Source: a phage
Length of the DNA stretch: 64,000 bases
Reading direction: 5' to 3' (one strand)
Sequence record: PX104378.1
The stretch's first letter is position 1, and every line of letters begins with the position of its first letter. The translations under genes were made by a program, and so were the position numbers. The notes below the pieces were generated by a model. That model saw only the letters and a list, made by a program, of their open reading frames with translations. It did not search any database and was not told where the DNA came from. Positions 3,570 through 64,000 of this stretch are shown here, in pieces.

Positions 3570-3577
3570 TATAAATA
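3570..3577 (+). promoter_or_regulatory. T4-type late promoter (TATAAATA) upstream of gene 36
   Basis: Exact TATAAATA ~35 nt upstream of the gene 36 ATG. Confidence 0.6.
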
Positions 3578-43730: not shown

Positions 43731-44285
43731 CTAAAAATTTTTAACACCATATTCACCAAAATAAAGATCAACCGCTTTGTCATAAGCTCTAGCCGCATCT
43801 TCTTCGTTGACATAATACCCAAGAGATATTAGTTTATCATTATTTCGTATTCTTGCAACCCATTTCTTCGTATGTTTATGCCAGCTAACTCCTTTATACT
43901 TGCTTGCTTTATTCTTGTACTTTCCAACGTTACAAGCATTTTTCTTTGCGTCGGACTCTCTAAGATTGCGCGGTGCGTTGTTTAAAGGATTTCGGTCTAT
44001 ATGATCTATAATTTCTGGTTGTGTTCCATGCTCAAGAAACCATACAACACGATGTACATATGGCTTTAAAACCCTCCCATTATCCATAACGATTGCAATT
44101 TGGAGATGATCCTGACTTTTAAAAGTTTTTACTTTATCTCCTGCCTTATAAAACTTTCCTTCGTAATTCTTTCCTCCGGCTCGGCTATTCTTTAAATGAT
44201 AAAGAATACCCTCATCGTCATGTCTATATCTTTCTCTTATAATTCGTTGCGTTTCTTCATCCCACAATTTGGAACGTCTACTCAT
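43731..44285 (-). CDS. HNH homing endonuclease with AP2 DNA-binding domain
   Basis: HNH core HRVVWFLEHG..IDHIDRNPLNNAPRNLR followed by AP2-like YKGVSWHKHTKKWVARI...LGYY..EEDAARAYD. Confidence 0.8.
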   Translation of the reverse strand: MSRRSKLWDEETQRIIRERYRHDDEGILYHLKNSRAGGKNYEGKFYKAGDKVKTFKSQDHLQIAIVMDNGRVLKPYVHRVVWFLEHGTQPEIIDHIDRNPLNNAPRNLRESDAKKNACNVGKYKNKASKYKGVSWHKHTKKWVARIRNNDKLISLGYYVNEEDAARAYDKAVDLYFGEYGVKNF

Positions 44286-47393: not shown

Positions 47394-47652
47394 AAATCGC
47401 CCTCAGTTCTTTATAGCCTCCAATGTGCTCGTTGTCAATGAATATCTGGGGGTATACAAACCGGAGGCTCTTTGAGTTTAGCCTCCCCGCCAGTTCTTCA
47501 ATCATATCACGGTCGGGAATAATGTCAACCCCGACCTGCTTGAATACTGGTTTAAGTGTATACGGAATACCCAGATCATCCAGTAGCTTCATTGCACTAA
47601 TACAACCATAACAATGATAAGCCTCTTTCGGTATACCGTATATCTCGATCAT
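47383..47652 (-). CDS. nrdH: Glutaredoxin-like protein (NrdH-like)
   Basis: 89 aa; CxxC active site CYGC near N-terminus; glutaredoxin motif VYPQIFIDNEHIGGYKEL; adjacent to nrd genes. Confidence 0.7.
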   Translation of the reverse strand: MIEIYGIPKEAYHCYGCISAMKLLDDLGIPYTLKPVFKQVGVDIIPDRDMIEELAGRLNSKSLRFVYPQIFIDNEHIGGYKELRAIYDY

Positions 47653-48146
47653 TTCTCAGCCTTTAATCTTTCTAGTTCTTCTTCCAGTTCCTTGATCCGT
47701 TGGTCACGTTCAAAGTCACGCTGTAACTTAGTGGCGAATACTCGTTTAAACTGATTGTAATCATCGATTTTAAACACTTCTTCTTCGCCATAGCGACGCA
47801 CAGAAACTTCGTAGTTGTTGAAAAATTGTTCCAACATTGCATCAGTAGTCAGTTCTGACGACACCACTTTAAAATAACGTTCTTCTGATTGCAAAAACCA
47901 GTTGTGCGCGTATTCCCGTACATCATCAACATCTCGACAGGTGTATGTTTTTCCATCAATTTCAATCGCAGAAACATATTCGATATCTGACGCAATTTTT
48001 TCAAAAGCGATAACTTTAAATGTACGGTCACCGATAAAGTCTGCTATTGCATCATTTGCAACACTGGTTGCAAAGGCTTTCCGCGCTCGCTCGTTTTTCC
48101 ACTGATAGGTCATACCAACAACAAACATATTACCATCAACAAACAT
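47649..48146 (-). CDS. Paralog-family protein (WEVGKTY / DGxTY / ERxYF modules)
   Basis: Shares GMTYQWKNERARKAF, IDGKTYTCRDVDD, EERYFKVV and C-terminal coiled coil with neighbours; start set to ATG adjacent to upstream stop. Confidence 0.5.
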   Translation of the reverse strand: MFVDGNMFVVGMTYQWKNERARKAFATSVANDAIADFIGDRTFKVIAFEKIASDIEYVSAIEIDGKTYTCRDVDDVREYAHNWFLQSEERYFKVVSSELTTDAMLEQFFNNYEVSVRRYGEEEVFKIDDYNQFKRVFATKLQRDFERDQRIKELEEELERLKAEK

Positions 48147-48147
48147 A

Positions 48148-48981
48148 TTACCAACCTCGCTCTTTACCAATCAAAAATTCAACTTCACGACGTTTAATGT
48201 CTTCTTGAAGGTCTTTAATCTTCTGGCGATCTTGCATGATTTCATCCATCTTGTCAAGTGCCGCAATGAAATCATCGAAACGTTCAAAGGTTTTACCTTC
48301 ATTTGCTTCGCCAAATTTAACCATTGTCAGGCCATAACGACTACTAAAAAGACGCTTCAACTGTCCAACGACCTTAGAATCATCGTTCACCTTTTCTTCT
48401 GGTTCTTTCACGGTTTCAACTTCACGAAAATATTTTCGTTCAAGCCCAACAAACCACACAGCATCAACATCATCATCAACACCCGCCGAATGAGGATTAA
48501 ATGTTCCACAAACATTATCATTATTGATGTCGATCATAGTAACGAAACCAACAGAATCAACGGAAGATACCGTAAAAGTCTCATCTCCTATCCAATCAGC
48601 AATTTTACGGTTGATATTAGAACAGTGAGAAAACGTCACTTTTGCGTTTACATCCTTCCAAATATAAGTTTTACCAACTTCCCATTTAGGAGGAACTTCT
48701 TCAACTTCACGAAAGAATTTTATATCAAATGGACTAAACAAATATGTTGACGTCCAAATGTCTTTTCCTGTAGCCGTTTTCGCCGTATGATAAACACCGT
48801 CTAGCTCTATTACATTAATCCAACCATCACCTTCGTTCTCGATGATGGTAAATGGCTTGTCACCAATAGCTGCACTGATATCGCTGTTAAGTGGAGAAAG
48901 AACACCTTCTCCGTTAGTAATAAACTCAGTTTTAGCGTTTTCATCTTTCCAAGTGTAAGTTTTACCAATTTCCCATTTCAT
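48148..48981 (-). CDS. Paralog-family protein (internally duplicated)
   Basis: MKWEIGKTYTWKDENAKTEF and internal repeat WEVGKTYIWKDVNAKVTF; FFREVE / YFREVE motifs. Confidence 0.55.
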   Translation of the reverse strand: MKWEIGKTYTWKDENAKTEFITNGEGVLSPLNSDISAAIGDKPFTIIENEGDGWINVIELDGVYHTAKTATGKDIWTSTYLFSPFDIKFFREVEEVPPKWEVGKTYIWKDVNAKVTFSHCSNINRKIADWIGDETFTVSSVDSVGFVTMIDINNDNVCGTFNPHSAGVDDDVDAVWFVGLERKYFREVETVKEPEEKVNDDSKVVGQLKRLFSSRYGLTMVKFGEANEGKTFERFDDFIAALDKMDEIMQDRQKIKDLQEDIKRREVEFLIGKERGW

Positions 48982-48993
48982 AATATATTCCCC

Positions 48994-49461
48994 TTAACCG
49001 ATTTTATCAAGTTCGTTTAATGCTTTCTCAGCTTCCTGTATAGCTTGCACTCTTTCCGGCATTTTGTCAAGAAAATCTTTCAACTCTTCAAAACTGGAGA
49101 TATGACGCAAGGCGTTAGCACCGATAGCCGCATGTGATTTGCATTCAAAGCGGATTTTATAATTATCCATCGCCAACTTGAGAAGATCAATTAATTTAGA
49201 TTCTTCTGGAATAATAATTTCTTCAAATCTGCTACGGTCATGATCCAGAAACCAACAATATAGACCTACATCGGTTGAACTCATATAAGTTCCATCATGA
49301 AGATAAACAGACCGCACGTATCCTTTTTTCGCATCAACCGACGCAACTTTAAACGGTAATCTCAGATATTTCAAATAATCAACATCATACCATTTTAAAA
49401 AATGGTCTGCATCTTTTACATCTTTCCAGGCATAGGTCTTACCAACTTCCCATTTCAACAT
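48994..49461 (-). CDS. Paralog-family protein
   Basis: MLKWEVGKTYAWKDVKDADHF; helical C-terminal module. Confidence 0.55.
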   Translation of the reverse strand: MLKWEVGKTYAWKDVKDADHFLKWYDVDYLKYLRLPFKVASVDAKKGYVRSVYLHDGTYMSSTDVGLYCWFLDHDRSRFEEIIIPEESKLIDLLKLAMDNYKIRFECKSHAAIGANALRHISSFEELKDFLDKMPERVQAIQEAEKALNELDKIG

Positions 49462-49465
49462 AATA

Positions 49466-50020
49466 TCACCTTTCGTTTTTGATACGTGATTCTAATTGGA
49501 TCATACGGTCGCGCGTTTGTTTGTATTCTCGGATAGCACCGATCCGGCTAGGCATACCATCCAGTACGCTCTTAATACCTTCTAGGGTAGTGATTTTAGC
49601 AATGCTATTATGTAACCCCATCTTATCGATCAACTGAATGTCGTAGGCTTCCATAAGCAGACCCAGACGTTCTAATGTTAAATCCGGTTCTTGTTCTTTA
49701 TCTTCTTCCTTTTCTTCCGGTTCTGGGATTTCTTTGTCAATAGTAGCTTCGGTAAAGAAACGACGCTCACCAGCCCAAAACCACACACCGTAACAGTTAA
49801 TAGGGGATTCTTTTAAAGTCATGGAGTCGAAATCACTACCAATAATAGTAATTTCTCTAACATCACCATCGTCATCAATGTCTTCTACCTTAAACGGGCG
49901 ACCAGCCAACAAGTCCACAATACATCCGTTAATACCCGACGAAAATTTAGTCAGTTCAGCTTTCGACGCTTCGCATTTAATATTGTAGATTTTACCTACT
50001 TCCCATTCCATAATAATCAC
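49466..50020 (-). CDS. Paralog-family protein
   Basis: MEWEVGKIYNIKCEASKAELTKF; ERRFFTEA; helical C-terminal module. Confidence 0.55.
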   Translation of the reverse strand: MIIMEWEVGKIYNIKCEASKAELTKFSSGINGCIVDLLAGRPFKVEDIDDDGDVREITIIGSDFDSMTLKESPINCYGVWFWAGERRFFTEATIDKEIPEPEEKEEDKEQEPDLTLERLGLLMEAYDIQLIDKMGLHNSIAKITTLEGIKSVLDGMPSRIGAIREYKQTRDRMIQLESRIKNER

Positions 50021-54359: not shown

Positions 54360-54387
54360 ATTATAGCATACTCCCTTCGCATGTCAA
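54360..54387 (-). promoter_or_regulatory. Early promoter cassette with stem-loop (PeSL-like)
   Basis: TTGACA-16nt-TATAAT; GGGAGTAT..ATACTCCC inverted repeat encloses the -10. Confidence 0.55.
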
Positions 54388-55562
54388 GCACTAACTTTTT
54401 TCTTTACTGCTTTCACCTTCTGGCGAATTGCTCGAATCTCTTCGATCTCTTTTTCAGTCTCTTTAACAATTTCTTTGCGATTCTGAATATCTGTATCGAG
54501 ATTATCATCAAGTTTAGGCAGCATGTCAATCAAGAACTTTTTAAAGTCTTTCAGGTTTCTGATAACAGCACCTTCACCCATTACCGCCACCCCTACACCA
54601 TCCGGCAGATCGCCAAACAGTTTAACCAGTTCAGACAGATGATCATGATCTTCTAGTGCTTCTTCCGGTTCAGATGGCAGTTCAACAAAGTTATAACGTT
54701 CATCATTGCTGATCAGGTGATACCAGCAAAGCCCGAATGATTTCGGTGTATATTCTACACCATCAATTTCAACCGAGTCAACACTTCCATAATCATCTAC
54801 TTTAGTTACCTTAAATCCTTGTCCCAGCTTTTGAACAATTTCAACAACATGACTTGATACAGTTTCAGCGGTAAACCAATATGGCAAATTATGCTGATTT
54901 GGCTTGTAGCGTTCACCTACTTTAAATCTCTGACCAGCCGCTTGCATAGCATGAAATTGTTGTTTCGTGATTTCCGCGAAGTATTCAAATTCGCCACCAT
55001 CAAACACACAAGCCCATTGTTCACAAAAACGATCTGCCTTAACAGTTTCACCTTTCGCGGTGATCATGGTAGCCGACCCGTGAAATTCTTCTTCAACTAA
55101 AAAGCCATATTCGACAAAATCAACAAGTTTCATGGCTTCTTTGTGCTCTGGATCATGCTCTCCCCAGAATCGCTTAAATTCTTGCAAACCTTCCGGGGTA
55201 AACGAATAGCACTTACCTTTTTCAAAGTAAGTAGGCATTGCATCGTCTTTCTTGTTCATCGCTTCGTATGCCTCTTTTGAGATGCGTTTAAAGTATTTGC
55301 GCTCATTGTGCATAATCATAGTAGCCCAATAATCCACAATATCATTAGCGGAATAAACTACATCTCCAGCTTCAATAGTAATAACATGACCGTGGTCATC
55401 TTTTTCTAATACTTTAAAGCCCTTTTCTACGATTCCAGCAACCCGAATATGACCACGGCGCGAAGCATCGGTCAGAATAATTGAATAGCGAGAAAAGTCT
55501 AGAAACTCATCTTTACCGCCTTCACGGAATGCATAGTAATGCCCTTCAAAGAATTTAGCCAT
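54384..55562 (-). CDS. Paralog-family protein (GFKVL / NERKYFKRI modules)
   Basis: 392 aa; HNERKYFKRISKEAYEAM and IDGVEYTPKSFG shared with 55619..56203 and 56200..56472. Confidence 0.55.
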   Translation of the reverse strand: MAKFFEGHYYAFREGGKDEFLDFSRYSIILTDASRRGHIRVAGIVEKGFKVLEKDDHGHVITIEAGDVVYSANDIVDYWATMIMHNERKYFKRISKEAYEAMNKKDDAMPTYFEKGKCYSFTPEGLQEFKRFWGEHDPEHKEAMKLVDFVEYGFLVEEEFHGSATMITAKGETVKADRFCEQWACVFDGGEFEYFAEITKQQFHAMQAAGQRFKVGERYKPNQHNLPYWFTAETVSSHVVEIVQKLGQGFKVTKVDDYGSVDSVEIDGVEYTPKSFGLCWYHLISNDERYNFVELPSEPEEALEDHDHLSELVKLFGDLPDGVGVAVMGEGAVIRNLKDFKKFLIDMLPKLDDNLDTDIQNRKEIVKETEKEIEEIRAIRQKVKAVKKKVSA

Positions 55563-55593
55563 AATATAATCCTCTCGTTGTTTAGATGGGAGT

Positions 55594-55622
55594 ATCTTAC
55601 TACTCCCGTTTCATCATGTCAA
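55594..55622 (-). promoter_or_regulatory. Early promoter cassette with stem-loop (PeSL-like)
   Basis: TTGACA-17nt-TAAGAT; GGGAGTA..TACTCCC. Confidence 0.55.
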
Positions 55623-56203
55623 GCGTTAAATGACTTTTTAATCTCTTTCAGTTCTTCCACTTTCTCGGCGCTGAATTTAGCGTAGGTATCATGTCGAATA
55701 ATTTCACTTTCAAGAAAGGTTTCCAGTCGAGATCTATTTTCAATAAGGAACTCTTTCAGGTCTTCCGCGTTCTTGACAAAGATTTTATTGTCGGTAATGT
55801 CATCTTCAATCGCAAAGGAGATAGAGCGAACTTTACCAAACAAGTTAATCAGATCTTCCAGAGATTCTTCTTTCTTAACTGGTTTCATTTCTTCAAACTG
55901 CTTTTTAGTGATGCGTTTAAAGTATTTGCGCTCGTTTGCAGCAATCAGAACAGATGCACCTTCATACCCATGAGTTTCTACCAGATACACACGCCCCATC
56001 GCATCAACAGTGAGAACTTTAAAGCCGTTACAAAGCACGTCATACAAGAACTTATTATGTTGCGGACATCGTTTGATAAATTCTGCGGCTGTTTCTGCAC
56101 TACGGAAAGTATAGTAACGACCTCGTTCAAAAACAGCATCATTTGAAGACTTAGCCGGATACAATTTATACGTTTTCTGTACCATAATATAATCCTCTAT
56201 CAT
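55619..56203 (-). CDS. Paralog-family protein
   Basis: 194 aa; NGFKVLTVDAMGRVY, ANERKYFKRITKKQFEEM. Confidence 0.55.
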   Translation of the reverse strand: MIEDYIMVQKTYKLYPAKSSNDAVFERGRYYTFRSAETAAEFIKRCPQHNKFLYDVLCNGFKVLTVDAMGRVYLVETHGYEGASVLIAANERKYFKRITKKQFEEMKPVKKEESLEDLINLFGKVRSISFAIEDDITDNKIFVKNAEDLKEFLIENRSRLETFLESEIIRHDTYAKFSAEKVEELKEIKKSFNA

Positions 56204-56472
56204 TTCACTAATTGAACAGCACGGAACAGAATGCGCTCACACGGAAGCAGCATAAATTCCCAACGCGGATCAAAGTCTTTAGCGGTGTATGTTTTCCCAT
56301 CAACCGAGATTTCACTTACATAACCAACAGGTGACACTTTAAGAACAGTAAACCCATTCTTGATGACTTCGTAGGTATCTTTCACCCCTTCGTATTCATC
56401 ATCTAAGAAGTCTTTATGTGCTTGCTCAGATTTAAAAACATAGGCCACACCGGATTTAAACATCTTACGCAT
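56200..56472 (-). CDS. Paralog-family protein (single module)
   Basis: Track ORF trimmed to ATG after AAGGAGAATCAACA; NGFTVLKVSPVGYV, VDGKTYTAKDFD. Confidence 0.5.
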   Translation of the reverse strand: MRKMFKSGVAYVFKSEQAHKDFLDDEYEGVKDTYEVIKNGFTVLKVSPVGYVSEISVDGKTYTAKDFDPRWEFMLLPCERILFRAVQLVK

Positions 56473-56503
56473 TGTTGATTCTCCTTCTTGATTAGATGGG
56501 AGT

Positions 56504-56532
56504 ATTTTACTACTCCCATTTCTTATTGTCAA
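56504..56532 (-). promoter_or_regulatory. Early promoter cassette with stem-loop (PeSL-like)
   Basis: TTGACA-17nt-TAAAAT; GGGAGTA..TACTCCC. Confidence 0.55.
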
Positions 56533-60361: not shown

Positions 60362-60403
60362 TTTGATTCTCCTTAAGAAAGTGTGTTTCGTTTTGATGTG
60401 TGT

Positions 60404-60432
60404 AGTATAGGGGATACGTGATCCCCTGTCAA
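60404..60432 (-). promoter_or_regulatory. Early promoter cassette with spacer stem-loop (PeSL-like)
   Basis: TTGACA-GGGGATCACGTATCCCC-TATACT; conserved 5'UTR to AGGAGAATCAAA-ATG. Confidence 0.55.
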
Positions 60433-60440
60433 CAACTTTT

Positions 60441-60770
60441 TTATGATTTTAGTGAATTAACTACTACATCAAAATGATGTACAGAGCACACCTTACGAAA
60501 CACGTATTCATCATGTTTAGGAATCTCCCCTAACCTCTCTATTTCGCTCGCTAACACGATAAACCGTTTATCCGGTACATTTACCTTATATGCTTCAACA
60601 ACGCACGGAAAACGCGTTTTAGCGAGTTCGGGATAGTTTTCTGACTCCATCAGGACAATGAATACTCTGTTACATTGATTGTAGAATCCTGTTTTTGATT
60701 TCATTAAGTTTTCTTCTCTGTGCAATTCGTGCAATCTTCCTTTCATGATTTCGTTGGTTCTTGTCTTCAC
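60441..60770 (-). CDS. Hypothetical protein (start uncertain)
   Basis: Track ORF begins at GTG and overlaps the upstream ORF by ~100 nt; true start probably an internal ATG. Confidence 0.35.
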   Translation of the reverse strand: MKTRTNEIMKGRLHELHREENLMKSKTGFYNQCNRVFIVLMESENYPELAKTRFPCVVEAYKVNVPDKRFIVLASEIERLGEIPKHDEYVFRKVCSVHHFDVVVNSLKS

Positions 60771-61011
60771 AGTTTACCCATTCAACAAGATCTTTACCTA
60801 ACTCGAAAGCCCATTCTCGGTCTTGCTTTACGTTTTGTAGGTATGGACTTTCCGACACTCTACGAAGTGATGTTGTCGTAACAAGAATGATCCCAGGAAT
60901 GGTCGGATGTTCCTTTCCATATACAATAGGACGCGAGTCACTATCAATACCCTGTAAGAAAGTGTATCCTGAATCACTTAGAATCATATACATTTTCATT
61001 TCACACATCAC
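60670..61011 (-). CDS. Hypothetical protein
   Basis: 113-aa ORF. Confidence 0.4.
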   Translation of the reverse strand: MMCEMKMYMILSDSGYTFLQGIDSDSRPIVYGKEHPTIPGIILVTTTSLRRVSESPYLQNVKQDREWAFELGKDLVEWVNCEDKNQRNHERKIARIAQRRKLNEIKNRILQSM

Positions 61012-61265
61012 AGCTTCCTCAACCAGTTATTAAAGCGAGCAAACCATGATGCTTTTCGTGCTTCTTTTACTTTATGTGCACGAAAACCACTGAAACACCA
61101 TTCATAATCATCACCGAAACATGATTCAACAGGAACACCCGCATTTCGTAGTTCTCTGGTCTTTATCATGAATCCTTGACATAAGGGGCGACCTTCAACA
61201 ATGATAGGAAGTTTAACTTTTTCCATGAAAGTATACCCAGCACGGTCAATAATTTCAATCTTCAT
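61008..61265 (-). CDS. Paralog-family protein (KIEIID...FM..VKLPIIVEG)
   Basis: 85 aa; N-terminus shared with 61284..61481 and 63607..63828. Confidence 0.5.
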   Translation of the reverse strand: MKIEIIDRAGYTFMEKVKLPIIVEGRPLCQGFMIKTRELRNAGVPVESCFGDDYEWCFSGFRAHKVKEARKASWFARFNNWLRKL

Positions 61266-61283
61266 AATATAATCCTCAATTAG

Positions 61284-61481
61284 TTATACTGCCCATGCTT
61301 CATTTGCACGAAAACACCATTCATACTCAGGAAAATAACCTTTAATTGGTACGCCAGCTTTTTGTAGTTCCTGCGTTTCTACAAGATAATCAAGCCCATA
61401 TCGACGACCTTCCACAATAATAGGAAGTTTAACGCCATTCATGAAAGAAAATCCACCATCATCAATAATTTCAATTTTCAT
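61284..61481 (-). CDS. Paralog-family protein (KIEIID...FM..VKLPIIVEG)
   Basis: 65 aa; MKIEIIDDGGFSFMNGVKLPIIVEGR. Confidence 0.5.
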   Translation of the reverse strand: MKIEIIDDGGFSFMNGVKLPIIVEGRRYGLDYLVETQELQKAGVPIKGYFPEYEWCFRANEAWAV

Positions 61482-61725
61482 TTACATTATCTCCATAGAT
61501 CTTTCCATCAATATCAATTTCACCAGCGCGAACATCTAGGATAAGATGTGGTAGGTGAATGCAGTTTTCCCAACCTACTCGCTTCATTTCTGCTACAGTA
61601 ACGTAAGCCCATCCGTTCGCTGTAATAAAGTCTACTTCAACCTTGAGAGGAAAGCAAGACTTTTCTATGTCTTCGAATCCGACAATGTGTTTTGTTGTTG
61701 AATATGGAATATATCCGGTGATCAT
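61471..61725 (-). CDS. Hypothetical protein
   Basis: 84-aa ORF. Confidence 0.45.
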   Translation of the reverse strand: MITGYIPYSTTKHIVGFEDIEKSCFPLKVEVDFITANGWAYVTVAEMKRVGWENCIHLPHLILDVRAGEIDIDGKIYGDNVNEN

Positions 61726-62183
61726 TTTGTGATCTCCTTATACTCAACACGCCATAAACGGGTCGCCCATGATAAACGCTCATAACGCTGGCAGAAATCA
61801 GACCATAGATATTGTGTACCGTCTTGCATAGTTGAAATATGCGTTTTCTCTCCTACTTTCACGAATGAAGTATTCGATTTTGTGATCTCGACCGGAGTAT
61901 ATCCGAAAGCTGGTTCCAAGTCAACATCTGAACTAAATGCCAATTTAACAGAATTTGTTTTTTTGACCGCTGTCCGGTTTCCTTCTGGGTATAGCACAGC
62001 AGGTTTAGCGCCTAAGCGGATAAACTCAGTGTTTTTAATGAACAGAATATCATGATAACCGTCATATTCCGACACTTCCATAGTAACAGGAAAATCGACA
62101 TGTTCTAAACCTGGTAGATCTCGCATATCATGAAATGTAGCCATCAACTTTTTCATCTTGTATTCCTCACTCTTCTGTTTCAT
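61722..62183 (-). CDS. Hypothetical protein
   Basis: 153-aa ORF. Confidence 0.5.
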   Translation of the reverse strand: MKQKSEEYKMKKLMATFHDMRDLPGLEHVDFPVTMEVSEYDGYHDILFIKNTEFIRLGAKPAVLYPEGNRTAVKKTNSVKLAFSSDVDLEPAFGYTPVEITKSNTSFVKVGEKTHISTMQDGTQYLWSDFCQRYERLSWATRLWRVEYKEITK

Positions 62184-62403
62184 TTCTTTTATATGGTACT
62201 ATAACAGGATTAATACAGCAAGCACCAATTACGTTATGAGCACCACAATTTAAGCATTTATAGTCATGGAACTTATTAAGGAATCGACCAAACTCATAAC
62301 CGACTAGCGCCGCATGTACTTGAGTCTCGATCTCATCCATATCAGCCAATGTTTTAACCTTCATAGTATAATCCTCAAATGGTAGTTTTGCGAAGATGGT
62401 CAT
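62167..62403 (-). CDS. Hypothetical Cys-containing protein
   Basis: 78 aa; CLNCGAHNVIGACC cluster. Confidence 0.45.
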   Translation of the reverse strand: MTIFAKLPFEDYTMKVKTLADMDEIETQVHAALVGYEFGRFLNKFHDYKCLNCGAHNVIGACCINPVIVPYKRNETEE

Positions 62404-62665
62404 TACATGCTTTTAATGCATCAGTCGCGGTGTCATAGCGAGTATTATCATAGCACCAGTAACCATCTGTCAACTGATAAATCAATCCATCCCTTTTAGC
62501 TTCGATGAAAGATAACTCTTTGAAAGTTTCTACTTTCTTTGCTGATACTCCACGGTCACGGCGCTTATAGAGTTTAGCTAAAATGCGTTCAGCTTGTTCC
62601 TCTTTATCACCAGACAGATCCCAAATAATGTTGCGGATATGTTTGATTAATTGTTCAGTGGTCAT
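62375..62665 (-). CDS. Hypothetical protein
   Basis: 96 aa; AAGGAGAATCAAAG-ATG with conserved 5'UTR cassette and promoter. Confidence 0.5.
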   Translation of the reverse strand: MTTEQLIKHIRNIIWDLSGDKEEQAERILAKLYKRRDRGVSAKKVETFKELSFIEAKRDGLIYQLTDGYWCYDNTRYDTATDALKACNDHLRKTTI

Positions 62666-62694
62666 CTTTGATTCTCCTTAGTTGGTATGTGTGC

Positions 62695-62722
62695 ATTATA
62701 GCACTATGATTTTCATTGTCAA
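62695..62722 (-). promoter_or_regulatory. Early promoter with conserved 5'UTR cassette
   Basis: TTGACA-16nt-TATAAT GCACACATACCAACTAAGGAGAATCAAAG-ATG. Confidence 0.5.
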
Positions 62723-62726
62723 CAAC

Positions 62727-62760
62727 TAAAAACAAAAAAGGCTATCCAGAAGGATAGCCC
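62727..62760 (-). terminator. Rho-independent terminator after the glycine-rich gene
   Basis: Minus-strand GGCTATCC-ttct-GGATAGCC followed by TTTTTTGTTTTT. Confidence 0.65.
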
Positions 62761-62766
62761 ATAAAA

Positions 62767-63552
62767 TTACACGCGAGCACCGTAGATCGTGCCTACTTTA
62801 TCCCAGCGTGGAGCATTACCAGTAACAGCCTTACCAGCCGCACCACCAGAGTGAACAGTTCCTCCAGTACCACCTTGAATATATGAAGATTTGCCAGCAG
62901 ATCCCAAATCTCCACCATTTCCTCCATAGTGAACCCCAGAAACAGTGCCTTTACCTGGGGCAGAAATTGTACCAGCAGATGCTGCCGCTGCGCCGCCTCC
63001 TGCCTTACCAGCCGCACCAAATGGACGGCCTCCGCCGCCGCCAAATATCATATCCATTTGAGGGAAAGGATGGTATCTAGCACCAGCACCGCCACCACCA
63101 CCACCACCAATAATACCATTATTGTTTATTCTTAAACGAGTTCCAATTCCGTTATTTATTGCATTTCCTCCTGCTCCGCCAGCAGAGTTACTTCCGCCAT
63201 TTCCTCCCCGACCTAATACATGAACACCAGAGTTAATAATGAGTGTTACATATTCGTTTGTTAGTGAGCTAGGGAAATCAAGACAAGGAACGCCAGTAGA
63301 ATGGGAAACAATATTACCGGTGATAGTAATTACTACCGGAGTAGATCCTTGTGCTTTCATCCAGTTAATAAGAGTGTCTTTATTGTAAGAGTTACTAGCG
63401 CCAATGCTATAATGAATCTCTTTAGAACGTCCGACCATCGCTGACATATACGCCGGACGACCTAAGCGTACAGCTTGCATTGCGGCGCTCATCCACCGTT
63501 GACCAGTCTCAGCAACAGCCGATGATCCGACCCAACCTGCTTTAATTGCCAT
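62767..63552 (-). CDS. Glycine-rich repeat protein
   Basis: 261 aa; C-terminal ~150 aa dominated by GGxGG/GGNGG runs; followed by hairpin terminator. Confidence 0.55.
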   Translation of the reverse strand: MAIKAGWVGSSAVAETGQRWMSAAMQAVRLGRPAYMSAMVGRSKEIHYSIGASNSYNKDTLINWMKAQGSTPVVITITGNIVSHSTGVPCLDFPSSLTNEYVTLIINSGVHVLGRGGNGGSNSAGGAGGNAINNGIGTRLRINNNGIIGGGGGGGAGARYHPFPQMDMIFGGGGGRPFGAAGKAGGGAAAASAGTISAPGKGTVSGVHYGGNGGDLGSAGKSSYIQGGTGGTVHSGGAAGKAVTGNAPRWDKVGTIYGARV

Positions 63553-63606
63553 AAAGTTTCCTCACAAGAAAAGCCCCATTTAAGGGGCATTGATTAATAA
63601 TATTAC

Positions 63607-63828
63607 TTAGATGACCTCTGCTTCACCATTCAGGAAGAAAGACCATGTTTTGTTAGGACAGCGAAGCGCCCATGATTCAGCAGTTTTAACACCAGCTTCG
63701 AACAATTGACGGCTGGTTACTTTAGCCATACCATCTTCGATGGCAACGTTTTCAATAATCATCGGGTACTTAGCGCCACGCATGAAACCGAAGCCAGCGG
63801 AAGATTTGATAATTTTAACAGTTGCCAT
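63607..63828 (-). CDS. Paralog-family protein (KIEIID-type)
   Basis: 73 aa; MATVKIIKSSAGFGFMRGAKYPMIIENV resembles 61008..61265 and 61284..61481. Confidence 0.5.
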   Translation of the reverse strand: MATVKIIKSSAGFGFMRGAKYPMIIENVAIEDGMAKVTSRQLFEAGVKTAESWALRCPNKTWSFFLNGEAEVI

Positions 63829-63867
63829 TTTTGATTCTCCTAGAAAGTGTATCTCGTTTCGATGTGT

Positions 63868-63899
63868 GTATTATGCAATAACACCGGATCACTGTCAAC
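63868..63899 (-). promoter_or_regulatory. Early promoter with conserved 5'UTR cassette
   Basis: TTGACA-~20nt-TAATAC ACACATCGAAACGAGATACACTTTCTAGGAGAATCAAAA-ATG. Confidence 0.4.
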
Positions 63900-64000
63900 A
63901 CTTTCTAAGAAAAATTTTAAATTAATCGAATATAGCCCAGAATTTCAGCACCTTTAGCCAGTCCTAAAACTTCCCATTCAAGGTCGCCGTAGTCATAATT

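Follow-up and report, generated by a model that had tools for sequence, protein, structure and literature searches.

Small early proteins that act in host takeover or against host defences include Arn, AsiA, Dmd and Stp of T4, Ocr of T7, and Gam, Kil and Ral of lambda. Small early ORFans account for a large share of T4-type phage genomes, and almost none of them has a known role. In the phages RB49 and phi1, promoter/stem-loop (PeSL) cassettes that are experimentally strong promoters and terminators are found in hyperplastic regions rich in non-essential ORFans (Arbiol et al. 2010, PMC2839356). The subject of that work is the regulatory and recombination cassettes and not the proteins considered here; ORF071c-076c and ORF080c are not mentioned in it, nor are these ORFs mentioned in a five-genome comparison of T4-like phages (PMC1524935).

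Here we report the analysis of a 64,000-nucleotide stretch of phage DNA (sequence record PX104378.1, hereafter the window), the source of which is a Krischvirus, an RB49-like T4-type coliphage. A sequence-only reading had pointed to a small paralog family of three genes, two adjacent and one more distant. We confirmed this family and found that in the window it very likely comprises seven genes, namely a contiguous tandem array of six (60441-62156) and a solo copy upstream of the gp38 adhesin gene; the same seven members were found in RB49 and GEC-3S. Seven 'hypothetical proteins' collapse in this way into one domain family with a confident predicted fold. The feature is of an ordinary kind, and its family is uncharacterised. 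The family genes, together with the gp38 gene enclosed between the solo paralog and the six-gene array, are:

60441..60704, minus strand: 87-aa divergent member, ORF071c type (HMM E = 3.6e-7; hhalign 94-96%)
60670..61008, minus strand: 112-aa divergent member, ORF072c type (HMM E = 6.4e-5 over the full domain; hhalign 95.4%)
61008..61265, minus strand: 85-aa member, ORF073c type, the domain plus a C-terminal tail (HMM E = 3.6e-25)
61284..61481, minus strand: 65-aa member, identical to RB49 ORF074c, the bare domain (family HMM E = 1.5e-25)
61471..61725, minus strand: 84-aa probable member, ORF075c type (HMM E = 1.7e-3 among 800 ORFs)
61722..62156, minus strand: 144-aa member, ORF076c type (HMM E = 1.9e-5; hhalign 92.8%)
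62767..63552, minus strand: gp38 tail-fibre adhesin, not a family member (Pfam GP38 E = 2.8e-70, Gp38_N E = 4.3e-18)
63607..63828, minus strand: 73-aa member, ORF080c type, solo and directly upstream of gp38 (HMM E = 1.4e-18)

The three original ORFs, which lie exactly where they had been placed (61008-61265, 85 aa; 61284-61481, 65 aa; 63607-63828, 73 aa; all on the minus strand), were joined into one family by pairwise BLASTP, with E-values of 3e-23 to 4e-6, and by matches of all three to PHROG 7345 (HMM E = 1.1e-38, 1.3e-35 and 3.1e-34, over profile positions 1-66 of 66). The 85- and 65-aa proteins share 53% identity over 66 residues (E = 3e-23), and the 73-aa protein aligns with them at E = 1e-6 and 4e-6, respectively. 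The sequence-only reading had described the similarity as an N-terminal block and a conserved C-terminus containing Trp and Cys. The similarity itself holds, but it does not fall into two separate blocks, as one whole domain of ~65 residues aligns; likewise, the Trp is conserved in all three ORFs (W55, together with F57, in the numbering of the 65-aa protein), whereas the Cys is present in the two adjacent genes only, the third having WSF.

Four further members (ORF071c, ORF072c, ORF076c and, most weakly, ORF075c) were added with a profile that included distant relatives. When 800 ORFs were scored with an extended superfamily HMM built from window proteins and distant representatives, exactly seven window ORFs were retrieved (E = 1.5e-25 to 1.7e-3), with noise from 0.38 upwards, and hhalign assigned the seven members probabilities of 77-99.6% as against at most 10% for 93 other minus-strand ORFs of 60-160 aa. 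Membership of ORF075c, the weakest assignment, is probable: only the central core motif aligns (hhalign 66-77% over 37-46 residues), and its homologue search returned Krischvirus sequences only. The start codon of the ORF071c-type gene was placed as in the RB49 annotation. ORF071c corresponds to PHROG 17411, which is also cross-hit by the second domain of a relative (P0030), and the orthologue of this gene in Makalu_003 (UniProt A0A6B9SQ26) is matched in Foldseek by the structural model of the 65-aa protein (TM 0.76).

The family consensus reads MK.K.L.dGGY.FM..V.FP..VEG......V...EL...G.......W.F., and the core motif of the superfamily is G[YF].[FM]..V.[FL]P..VE....V...EL...G....W.F; most conserved positions hold hydrophobic, aromatic or Gly/Pro residues and not basic ones. 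The domain of ~65 residues stands bare in the 65- and 73-aa members, and tails or further domains are appended to it in the members of 85, 87, 112 and 144 aa. In ORF073c the C-terminal tail consists of 19 basic and aromatic residues (KEARKASWFARFNNWLRKL; pI 11.7), and in the ORF072c type an acidic domain (pI 4.8) is followed by a basic C-terminal tail of 29 residues (pI 12.0). The N-terminal ~70 residues of ORF076c form a divergent family domain, and its C-terminal half matches PHROG 10407.

The HMM search that had been proposed as a check on the family returned relatives in diverse phages and prophages, and a functional annotation was found nowhere. The seven window proteins and ten distant relatives gave zero matches in Pfam; the sole match in NCBIfam scored 15.8 bits, far below its cut-off of 70 bits; no PADLOC-DB defence component was matched at E-values up to 1; and sequence-profile searches of the PDB with two alignments returned nothing, a single match at E = 1.1 being noise. 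More weakly, PHROG 13367 was matched by the three original proteins and PHROG 15322 by these except the 73-aa protein; distant relatives cross-hit PHROGs 5009, 8603, 9595 and 20482. All of these clusters (7345, 13367, 15322, 5009, 8603, 9595, 20482 and 17411) are labelled 'unknown function'; PHROGs are automatic clusters, without a name, structure or function. In the literature searched, by PHROG identifier, RB49 ORF name and sequence motif, the family genes were not mentioned, and no record was found of the link between these PHROGs and of the seven-member Krischvirus grouping. A term search of the EVADES anti-defence catalogue preprint turned up neither SH3 or barrel folds nor paralogs or tandem arrays.

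Structure prediction, also proposed as a check, yielded a confident fold without a PDB counterpart. In the AF2 model (pLDDT 96.3, pTM 0.81), the 65-aa protein is a small, beta-rich, barrel-like domain, and the RB49 protein, modelled independently in BFVD, superimposes on it with a TM score of 0.99. Many uncharacterised phage proteins match this model in Foldseek (TM 0.7-0.83), and no significant match was found in the PDB (to April 2026). The best PDB neighbours, which are non-significant, are the SH3 domains of CD2AP, JIP1, Src and Fyn (E = 0.7 to 5; TM 0.38-0.53, probability at most 0.41, rmsd 4-6 A, 6-17% identity), and Sm, Tudor and ribosomal SH3-like proteins appear further down the list. 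The domain resembles the small SH3-like beta-barrels (SH3, Sm, KOW, Tudor) in size and all-beta character, but it differs from them in that strands 3 and 4 are separated by an inserted alpha-helix (residues 36-41) and long loop, and it has no sequence relationship to them. DNA mimics of the Ocr, ArdA or Arn type were absent from the Foldseek PDB matches and from the PDB sequence-profile matches. The family at large is strongly acidic: across 149 family proteins the median pI is 4.5 and the net charge about -7, with 82% of the proteins below pI 6. In the window, only ORF074c (pI 4.7), ORF075c and the domain of ORF072c are acidic, and the 73-aa (pI 8.9) and 85-aa (pI 9.6) proteins are basic.

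A scan of the locus for regulatory elements identified the following features:

62760-62739, minus strand: stem-loop terminator, followed by the array-operon promoter
62722-62695, minus strand: perfect sigma70-type early promoter (TTGACA, 16 nt, TG-TATAAT) at the head of the six-gene array operon
63588-63573, minus strand: GC stem-loop with a T-run between the 73-aa gene and gp38, a putative terminator or attenuator
63898-63870, minus strand: sigma70-type early promoter ahead of the 73-aa gene (TTGACA, 17 nt, CATAAT)

The annotation of GEC-3S has equivalent promoters and terminators at corresponding positions, including the stem-loop at 63588-63573 as a terminator, and TATAAATA late promoters are absent from the paralog locus. 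The six array genes are translationally coupled and form one operon behind the strong predicted early promoter; the first 11 nt of the 65-aa gene lie within the end of the preceding ORF, the stop codon of the 85-aa gene and the ATG of the next gene overlap by 1 nt, and a Shine-Dalgarno sequence can be read before each of the three original genes. From the promoter scan and the GEC-3S annotation, the family members are predicted to be early-expressed genes. The locus has the form of PeSL cassettes with ORFans, ORF080c having a promoter and a stem-loop, and the head of the array operon a stem-loop and a promoter. The RB49/phi1 cassettes come from the same phage group and, as in the window, an early promoter and a GC stem-loop flank small ORFans (PMC2839356); there, as here, close relatives are distinguished by insertions, deletions and replacements (PMC2839356).

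Comparison with six other Krischvirus genomes gave dN/dS below 1 for the family genes. The 65-aa gene differs from its relatives by 6-8 synonymous and 0-1 non-synonymous changes, and the 73-aa ORF080c is nearly invariant in Krischvirus, its relatives differing by 1-2 non-synonymous changes only. These substitution patterns indicate that the family genes are real and under purifying selection. At the same time, copy number and allele vary between Krischvirus genomes in this hyperplastic region: of 59 Krischvirus records about 29 carry the 65-aa type, which about half of the genomes lack (Delraymugoa, JK32 and MIZ2/3/6 among them), the ORF073c allele of phage PHB13 has 76.5% DNA identity between flanks of ~92-96%, and chimeric genes occur (P0004, P0027 and P0029). 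Being variable between close relatives and dispensable, the family genes appear to be accessory. Host-range and defence tests could draw directly on natural isolates of Krischvirus, which differ in whether they carry the 65-aa gene and in their ORF073c alleles.

Beyond Krischvirus, the superfamily comprises ~200 clusters from diverse phages and prophages. Relatives occur in lambdoid prophages as well as in myo-, sipho- and podophages; their neighbours are invariably small accessory genes of the early class, and some are fused as tandem domains (natural two-domain fusions, e.g. P0030). In the early-left operon of lambdoid Morganella and Proteus prophages, RecT/YqaJ or Erf/SSB precede the member, and NinX, Dam and int follow it; a scan of 20 window ORFs (56.2-63.6 kb) found no homologue of NinX, the constant neighbour in prophages. 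A distant T4-like contig carries a syntenic array of four genes and six domains upstream of Mom-like, QueC-like and Dam genes, and in a T1-like phage the member adjoins a polynucleotide kinase gene. Such neighbourhoods typically house host-modulating and anti-restriction genes in lambda, P22 and T4. Several candidate relatives were rejected. T4 31.1, annotated as an SH3 beta-barrel, is unrelated (hhalign probability 0.1%), T4 Frd.1 (40% over 36 residues) was not accepted, and matches to the Cna_B/SpaA adhesins P0032, P0042 and P0045 were spurious, resulting from summed short repeat matches.

The reading that we tentatively favor, at somewhat less than even confidence, is that the family consists of early binders of host factors or defence proteins diversified by duplication. 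Its members would be non-enzymatic proteins made immediately after infection, each binding a host macromolecule stoichiometrically, most probably a host-takeover target or a component of anti-phage defence. Binding specificity may have diversified through tandem duplication, allele replacement and gene conversion, and the basic C-terminal tails of some copies could make a further contact with membrane, nucleic acid or protein. The strong acidity of the family and the natural tandem two-domain fusions speak for such binders, and the size of ~65 residues combined with the lack of matches in Pfam, NCBIfam and PADLOC gives no sign of an enzymatic or structural function. Like the family, the host-takeover proteins of T-even and lambdoid phages are small, early, non-essential and often acidic, and they are encoded among small genes behind host-type promoters; in lambdoid prophages, the early-left operon is the site of both. 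The family nevertheless has no sequence or structural similarity to the T4, T7 and lambda proteins named above, and the analogy suggests a probable mode of working, not membership. Against the binder reading, a homology link to any characterised inhibitor was not found, the window members are not uniformly acidic, and the 73-aa copy, being nearly invariant, is unlike an arms-race gene; guilt by association is also weak, since the early regions of phages are full of unrelated small genes.

Some of the neighbourhoods would also suit accessory factors in the phage's handling of its own DNA during recombination, replication or modification, such as small adaptors for its recombination or modification enzymes. 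In three prophages the gene stands between the recombination module and NinX with Dam, the arrays of the window and of the distant T4-like contig have genes for Dam, endonuclease VII and glutaredoxin within a few kb, and the member of phage Moon lies between gene 32 and frd. However, the partner genes differ in every context, and a copy number of 1 to 7 with a dispensable 65-aa copy would be unusual for a dedicated cofactor. Moreover, T4 has the same core machinery, and the family HMM found no member in the 119 kb of its genome that were scanned (1-62 kb and 112-169 kb), which indicates that the core T4-type programme can do without the family; we regard this explanation as unlikely. The fold raises another candidate, that of small SH3-like-barrel nucleic-acid binders (as in Sso7d, Sm/Hfq, KOW or Tudor-like proteins) acting as early regulators of transcription or translation. 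The identity of the nearest PDB neighbours, the strongly basic tails of the 85- and 112-aa members and the mildly basic 73-aa member agree with it, but no PDB match in Foldseek reached significance (E no lower than 0.7, TM about 0.5 at most), proteins across the family are for the most part strongly acidic, and the residues conserved in them are mostly non-basic; we consider this candidate improbable.

The position of ORF080c invites a further explanation, in which family members, or at least this one, are tail-fibre or adhesin accessories that assist the expression, folding or attachment of gp38 and are possibly co-transcribed with it. In Krischvirus, the nearly invariant ORF080c directly precedes gp38 in all cases, and the gp38 cassette is flanked by family members on both sides. 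As gp38 lacks a TATAAATA late promoter and only a short stem-loop separates it from ORF080c and the early promoter of ORF080c, read-through would be the simplest route to its transcription; the stem-loop, however, is annotated as a terminator and is terminator-like by consensus. Members also occur in podophages, siphophages and prophages with no gp38-type adhesin nearby, that of phage Moon is far from gp38, and in a natural variant that has lost gp38 from the locus, ORF080c is reduced to its first 46 residues, which are fused to ORF075c. Co-occurrence with gp38 is confined to ORF080c within Krischvirus and does not extend to the family; we consider this explanation quite improbable. Finally, the genes could be functionless or purely selfish ORFans that travel with the PeSL cassettes when these recombine and contribute nothing to infection. 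They lie in a hyperplastic region of the kind in which PeSL recombination adds and removes ORFans (PMC2839356), and they show presence/absence polymorphism and chimeras. Clear purifying selection, exemplified by the 65-aa gene, the retention of fold and motif across very distant phages, and the presence of Shine-Dalgarno sequences and translational coupling make this last explanation highly improbable.

If the early-binder reading that we favor proves true, inhibitors of host factors or immunity would gain a new scaffold for their catalogue; otherwise, this is one more uncharacterised accessory family. A bolder form of the proposal, possible although unlikely, is that the domain is a phage-specific binding scaffold, previously unrecognised and with its own fold, the arrays and fusions being a repertoire of inhibitors and the seven-gene array a diversifying counter-defence locus. 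The inhibitors would then be aimed at different immunity or housekeeping proteins of the host, and the paralogs flanking gp38 might, as a side effect, supply homology that mobilises or deletes the host-range cassette. In the variant contig with the ORF080c-ORF075c fusion, the deletion of gp38 occurred via a microhomology of 13-14 nt inside two paralog coding sequences and not at the PeSLs.

Megablast of window 60400-64000 matched 92 phage records, nearly all of them Krischvirus, the RB49-like T4-type coliphages, with phage Brandy as the closest (96.7% identity over the full query). The open reading frames at 61008-61265 (85 aa), 61284-61481 (65 aa), and 63607-63828 (73 aa) are present on the minus strand as the sequence-only reading described, and their RB49 counterparts, ORF073c, ORF074c, and ORF080c, are all annotated as hypothetical proteins. 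RB49 ORF074c and the 65-aa protein have identical sequences, as do the 85-aa protein and its counterpart in phage JSE; a collection of 15 billion proteins does not contain the exact 73-aa sequence. The proposed paralogy was borne out by BLASTP, in which the adjacent pair share 53% identity (E = 3e-23) and the third protein is related to both (E = 1e-6 and 4e-6), and each of the three aligns from one end to the other with the phage protein cluster PHROG 7345 (E = 1e-34 to 1e-38). The similarity had been described as a shared N-terminal block plus a C-terminal motif; it is not confined to these two blocks, as the whole domain of ~65 residues aligns. Within the C-terminal 'EWCF' motif, the Trp is conserved as claimed, and so is the Phe, whereas the Cys is missing from the third protein, which has WSF. 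The genes are real and under purifying selection, because dN/dS relative to six other Krischvirus loci is well below 1 (0-1 non-synonymous versus 6-8 synonymous differences for the 65-aa gene); each also has a Shine-Dalgarno sequence, and neighbours overlap by 1-35 nt.

With the three proteins as queries, a word-indexed search stayed among Krischvirus-like sequences and returned only 29 clusters. When 1.84 billion representatives were scanned exhaustively with HMMER, 38 matched at E below 1e-3. Among them are several tandem two-domain proteins and ~30 distant relatives, 65-77 aa long, that share the consensus MKVKLLNDGGY..M..V.FPVVVEG...V.GSEL.R.GA...Y.F...E.EVI.E; three large Cna_B/SpaA adhesins also matched but were rejected as artefacts of summed short matches. 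A superfamily HMM built from the window proteins and these distant relatives, run with all filters off against 800 stop-to-stop window ORFs, extended the family beyond three genes and matched the following seven ORFs (searched coordinates) and no others, the next best scoring E = 0.38:

61287-61481, minus strand, ORF074c (65 aa), E = 1.5e-25
61011-61283, minus strand, ORF073c (85 aa), E = 3.6e-25
63610-63870, minus strand, ORF080c (73 aa), E = 1.4e-18
60444-60773, minus strand, ORF071c, E = 3.6e-7
61725-62198, minus strand, ORF076c, E = 1.9e-5
60673-61026, minus strand, ORF072c, E = 6.4e-5
61474-61737, minus strand, ORF075c, E = 1.7e-3

Among 100 minus-strand ORFs of 60-160 aa, hhalign probabilities against the family were 77-99.6% for these seven and at most 10.1% for the rest. 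The matches therefore define an array of six contiguous genes (60441-62156) and a solo seventh copy (63607-63828), separated by the gp38 tail-fibre adhesin gene and two small genes unrelated to the family. In RB49 and GEC-3S, scores were again obtained for these seven ORFs but not for ORF081c-084c, which lie beyond the window. Predicted structures lend independent support to ORF071c, whose orthologue in Makalu_003 (QHJ73019.1, UniProt A0A6B9SQ26) has a BFVD model similar to that of the 65-aa protein (TM 0.76, probability 1.0); its cluster, PHROG 17411, is also cross-matched by the second domain of the relative P0030. ORF075c is the weakest member, with an hhalign probability of 66-77% over its central 37-46 residues only and no homologues found outside Krischvirus to deepen the profile.

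The domain shared by this seven-member family is confidently predicted to be small and beta-rich. The AlphaFold2 model of the 65-aa protein, based on a 16-sequence alignment (pLDDT 96.3, pTM 0.81), contains strands at 2-5, 21-28, 31-35, 54-57, and 62-64 and a short helix at 36-41, and agrees with an independent BFVD prediction for the RB49 protein (TM 0.99). Foldseek against the PDB (to April 2026) gave nothing with E below 0.7, the nearest structures being SH3 domains at a non-significant TM of just 0.38-0.53. Profile searches of PDB sequences found no match to the family, nor did the window members or distant relatives match Pfam, NCBIfam, or PADLOC, leaving no similarity to characterised proteins or solved structures in these four resources. 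In BFVD, the model is matched by ~25 uncharacterised proteins from other phages (TM 0.6-0.83), among them those of Citrobacter Merlin, Vibrio VpV262, Cronobacter CS01, Escherichia SRT8 and NBD2, and Klebsiella ZCKP1.

The family has a wide distribution: many phages carry members among their small early accessory genes. A broader profile search collected 199 clusters with no Pfam domain and no name except 'hypothetical protein', many on contigs of ~40-48 kb or 165-170 kb and a few in Morganella/Proteus chromosomes. By tblastn, a consensus-like relative matched 28 phage records, all hypothetical proteins, from Citrobacter, Proteus, Klebsiella, Morganella, Iodobacter, Salmonella, Vibrio, Pantoea, Aeromonas, and Escherichia hosts. 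In a Proteus podophage (two copies), Iodobacter phage PLPE, and T1-like Henu7, members are surrounded by small unnamed genes, and the Henu7 member adjoins polynucleotide kinase/phosphatase; Citrobacter phage Moon has a single copy between gene 32 and frd, and in T4 no member was detected in the regions scanned, 1-62 kb and 112-169 kb. A distant T4-like metagenomic contig carries a syntenic array of four genes and six domains (68, 142, 145, and 70 aa) upstream of Mom-like, QueC-like, Dam, and glutaredoxin genes, and the window array likewise lies upstream of dam and a glutaredoxin-like gene. In three lambdoid prophage contexts, the member belongs to a repressor-proximal early operon, after RecT/YqaJ or Erf/SSB, and overlaps the start of a NinX-like gene, followed by Dam (two of three) and integrase (all three). 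Across all four Morganella/Proteus-type prophage contexts inspected (L014, L015, L016, and L017), the NinX-like gene (PF10765) directly follows the member with an overlapping start, which points to a conserved two-gene unit; none of the window ORFs scanned is a NinX homologue.

The family genes in the window are served by early-type promoters, associated with the following elements:

62722-62695, minus strand, perfect sigma70-type promoter (TTGACA, 16 nt, TG-TATAAT) heading the array operon
62760-62739, minus strand, strong terminator just before that promoter
63898-63870, minus strand, second sigma70-type promoter, upstream of ORF080c
63588-63573, minus strand, GC stem-loop with T-run, downstream of ORF080c

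The operon behind the first promoter comprises ORF078c, ORF077c, and then the six-gene array, and the GEC-3S annotation carries the same promoters and terminators. This arrangement matches the 'PeSL' promoter/stem-loop layout of the RB49/phi1 hyperplastic regions, where lacZ fusions demonstrated strong promoters and effective terminators, and where non-essential ORFans flanked by PeSLs are gained and lost through recombination; these particular ORFs are not mentioned there (PMC2839356). The gp38 gene (62767-63552, considered together with 63553-63950) lies on the early-gene strand, enclosed by two stem-loop terminators and without an upstream T4-type late promoter. A single copy of the late promoter motif TATAAATA is present in the 64-kb window, at 3570-3577 (5.9 expected by chance), and allowing one mismatch gave none upstream of gp38, which may be transcribed by read-through from the early promoter of ORF080c. 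The ORF077c homologue (62167-62403, minus strand), in the early operon of the array, is a small Cys-rich protein (...YKCLNCGAHNVIGACCINP...) that matches PHROG 15013, of unknown function, and may be zinc-ribbon-like.

Purifying selection coexists with presence/absence and allele polymorphism. Among 59 Krischvirus records matched by tblastn with the 65-aa query, ~29 carry a gene of this type (at least 60% identity), and in ~30 the best match is only the ORF073c-type paralog (roughly 53%), indicating that ORF074c is absent from them, as was confirmed in Delraymugoa and JK32. The PHB13 allele of ORF073c has 76.5% DNA identity with gaps, versus ~92-96% for flanking genes, and metagenomic ORF073c/ORF074c alleles fall to 45-67% protein identity; unlike these two, ORF080c is nearly invariant. 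The relative P0004 is a chimera joining the N-terminus of an ORF074c variant to an ORF073c body. The 60-aa P0027 (L019 5001-5183, on the 163.7-kb metagenome contig k141_2129202, and L020) joins ORF080c residues 1-46 to the ORF075c C-terminus, corresponding to window positions 63690 and 61530. In this natural Krischvirus variant, the chimera arose by a deletion of ~2.2 kb that took gp38, ORF078c, 077c, 076c, and most of 075c out of the locus, with its junction at a shared GTTCG..GCTGGTG microhomology. An extra 72-85-aa gene lies between the ORF076c and ORF077c homologues of E26, PHB13, and Makalu_003 (L010 2066-2311, L012 2031-2288, and L018 2077-2295) and is missing from the window, RB49, and GEC-3S; it is another insertion/deletion polymorphism of the array operon.

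Family proteins are typically acidic (medians of 72 aa, pI 4.5, and net charge -7 among 149 proteins, 82% with pI below 6), as are the 65-aa protein, ORF075c, and the ORF072c domain in the window; the 85-aa and 112-aa proteins have basic C-terminal tails (pI 11.7 and 12.0). The basic, aromatic ORF073c-type tail (...WFARFNNWLRKL, window 61008-61064; ...ARKASWFARFNNWLRKL) is found again in P0036 (...FQRFNHFLKGL) and P0039 (...RVRHFFTGK), both distant relatives, suggesting that the tail is a functional amphipathic helix added to the domain.

In lambda, P22, and T-even phages, the products of early dispensable genes typically modulate host proteins or defences stoichiometrically. We infer that the domain is not an enzyme, as it is too small and too variable. 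Because it is also without membrane segments, usually acidic, and found in fusions with itself or with short tails, and because of its genomic company, we tentatively favour, at somewhat less than an even chance, a mechanism in which the proteins would act as early binders of host factors or defence proteins, diversified by duplication. As rival readings, the family proteins might be cofactors of phage DNA transactions, with RecT, Erf/SSB, Dam, or gene 32 nearby in other genomes, or nucleic-acid binders, a reading that the basic tails favour and the acidic majority does not. ORF080c, next to gp38, might serve as an accessory to that adhesin, and the whole family might be functionless cargo, for which the presence/absence polymorphism speaks and against which the low dN/dS speaks. 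The natural copy-number and allele variants offer a testable lead, and there is a small chance that the family is a new inhibitor scaffold. The genes themselves already stand in the databases and have been grouped into PHROG 7345 and its relatives, and in kind they are an ordinary T4-type hyperplastic-region feature, an uncharacterised accessory ORFan family; the sevenfold paralogy, superfamily links, and fold appear to be unrecorded in the literature and databases searched.

Two further features were observed in the window. ORF translations point to another, larger early-protein paralog family with repeated N-terminal 'WE(V/I)GKTY.WKD...' modules, two or three in some members:

47649-50020 and 54384-56532, minus strand, ORFs of this family, of 173, 277, 155, 184, 392, 194, and 110 aa

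Between gp47 and the gp55 region, a separate 184-aa ORF (43731-44285, minus strand) looks like an HNH/AP2-domain homing endonuclease; for the counterpart in RB49, ORF040c, PMC1524935 lists AP2 and HNH Pfam matches.
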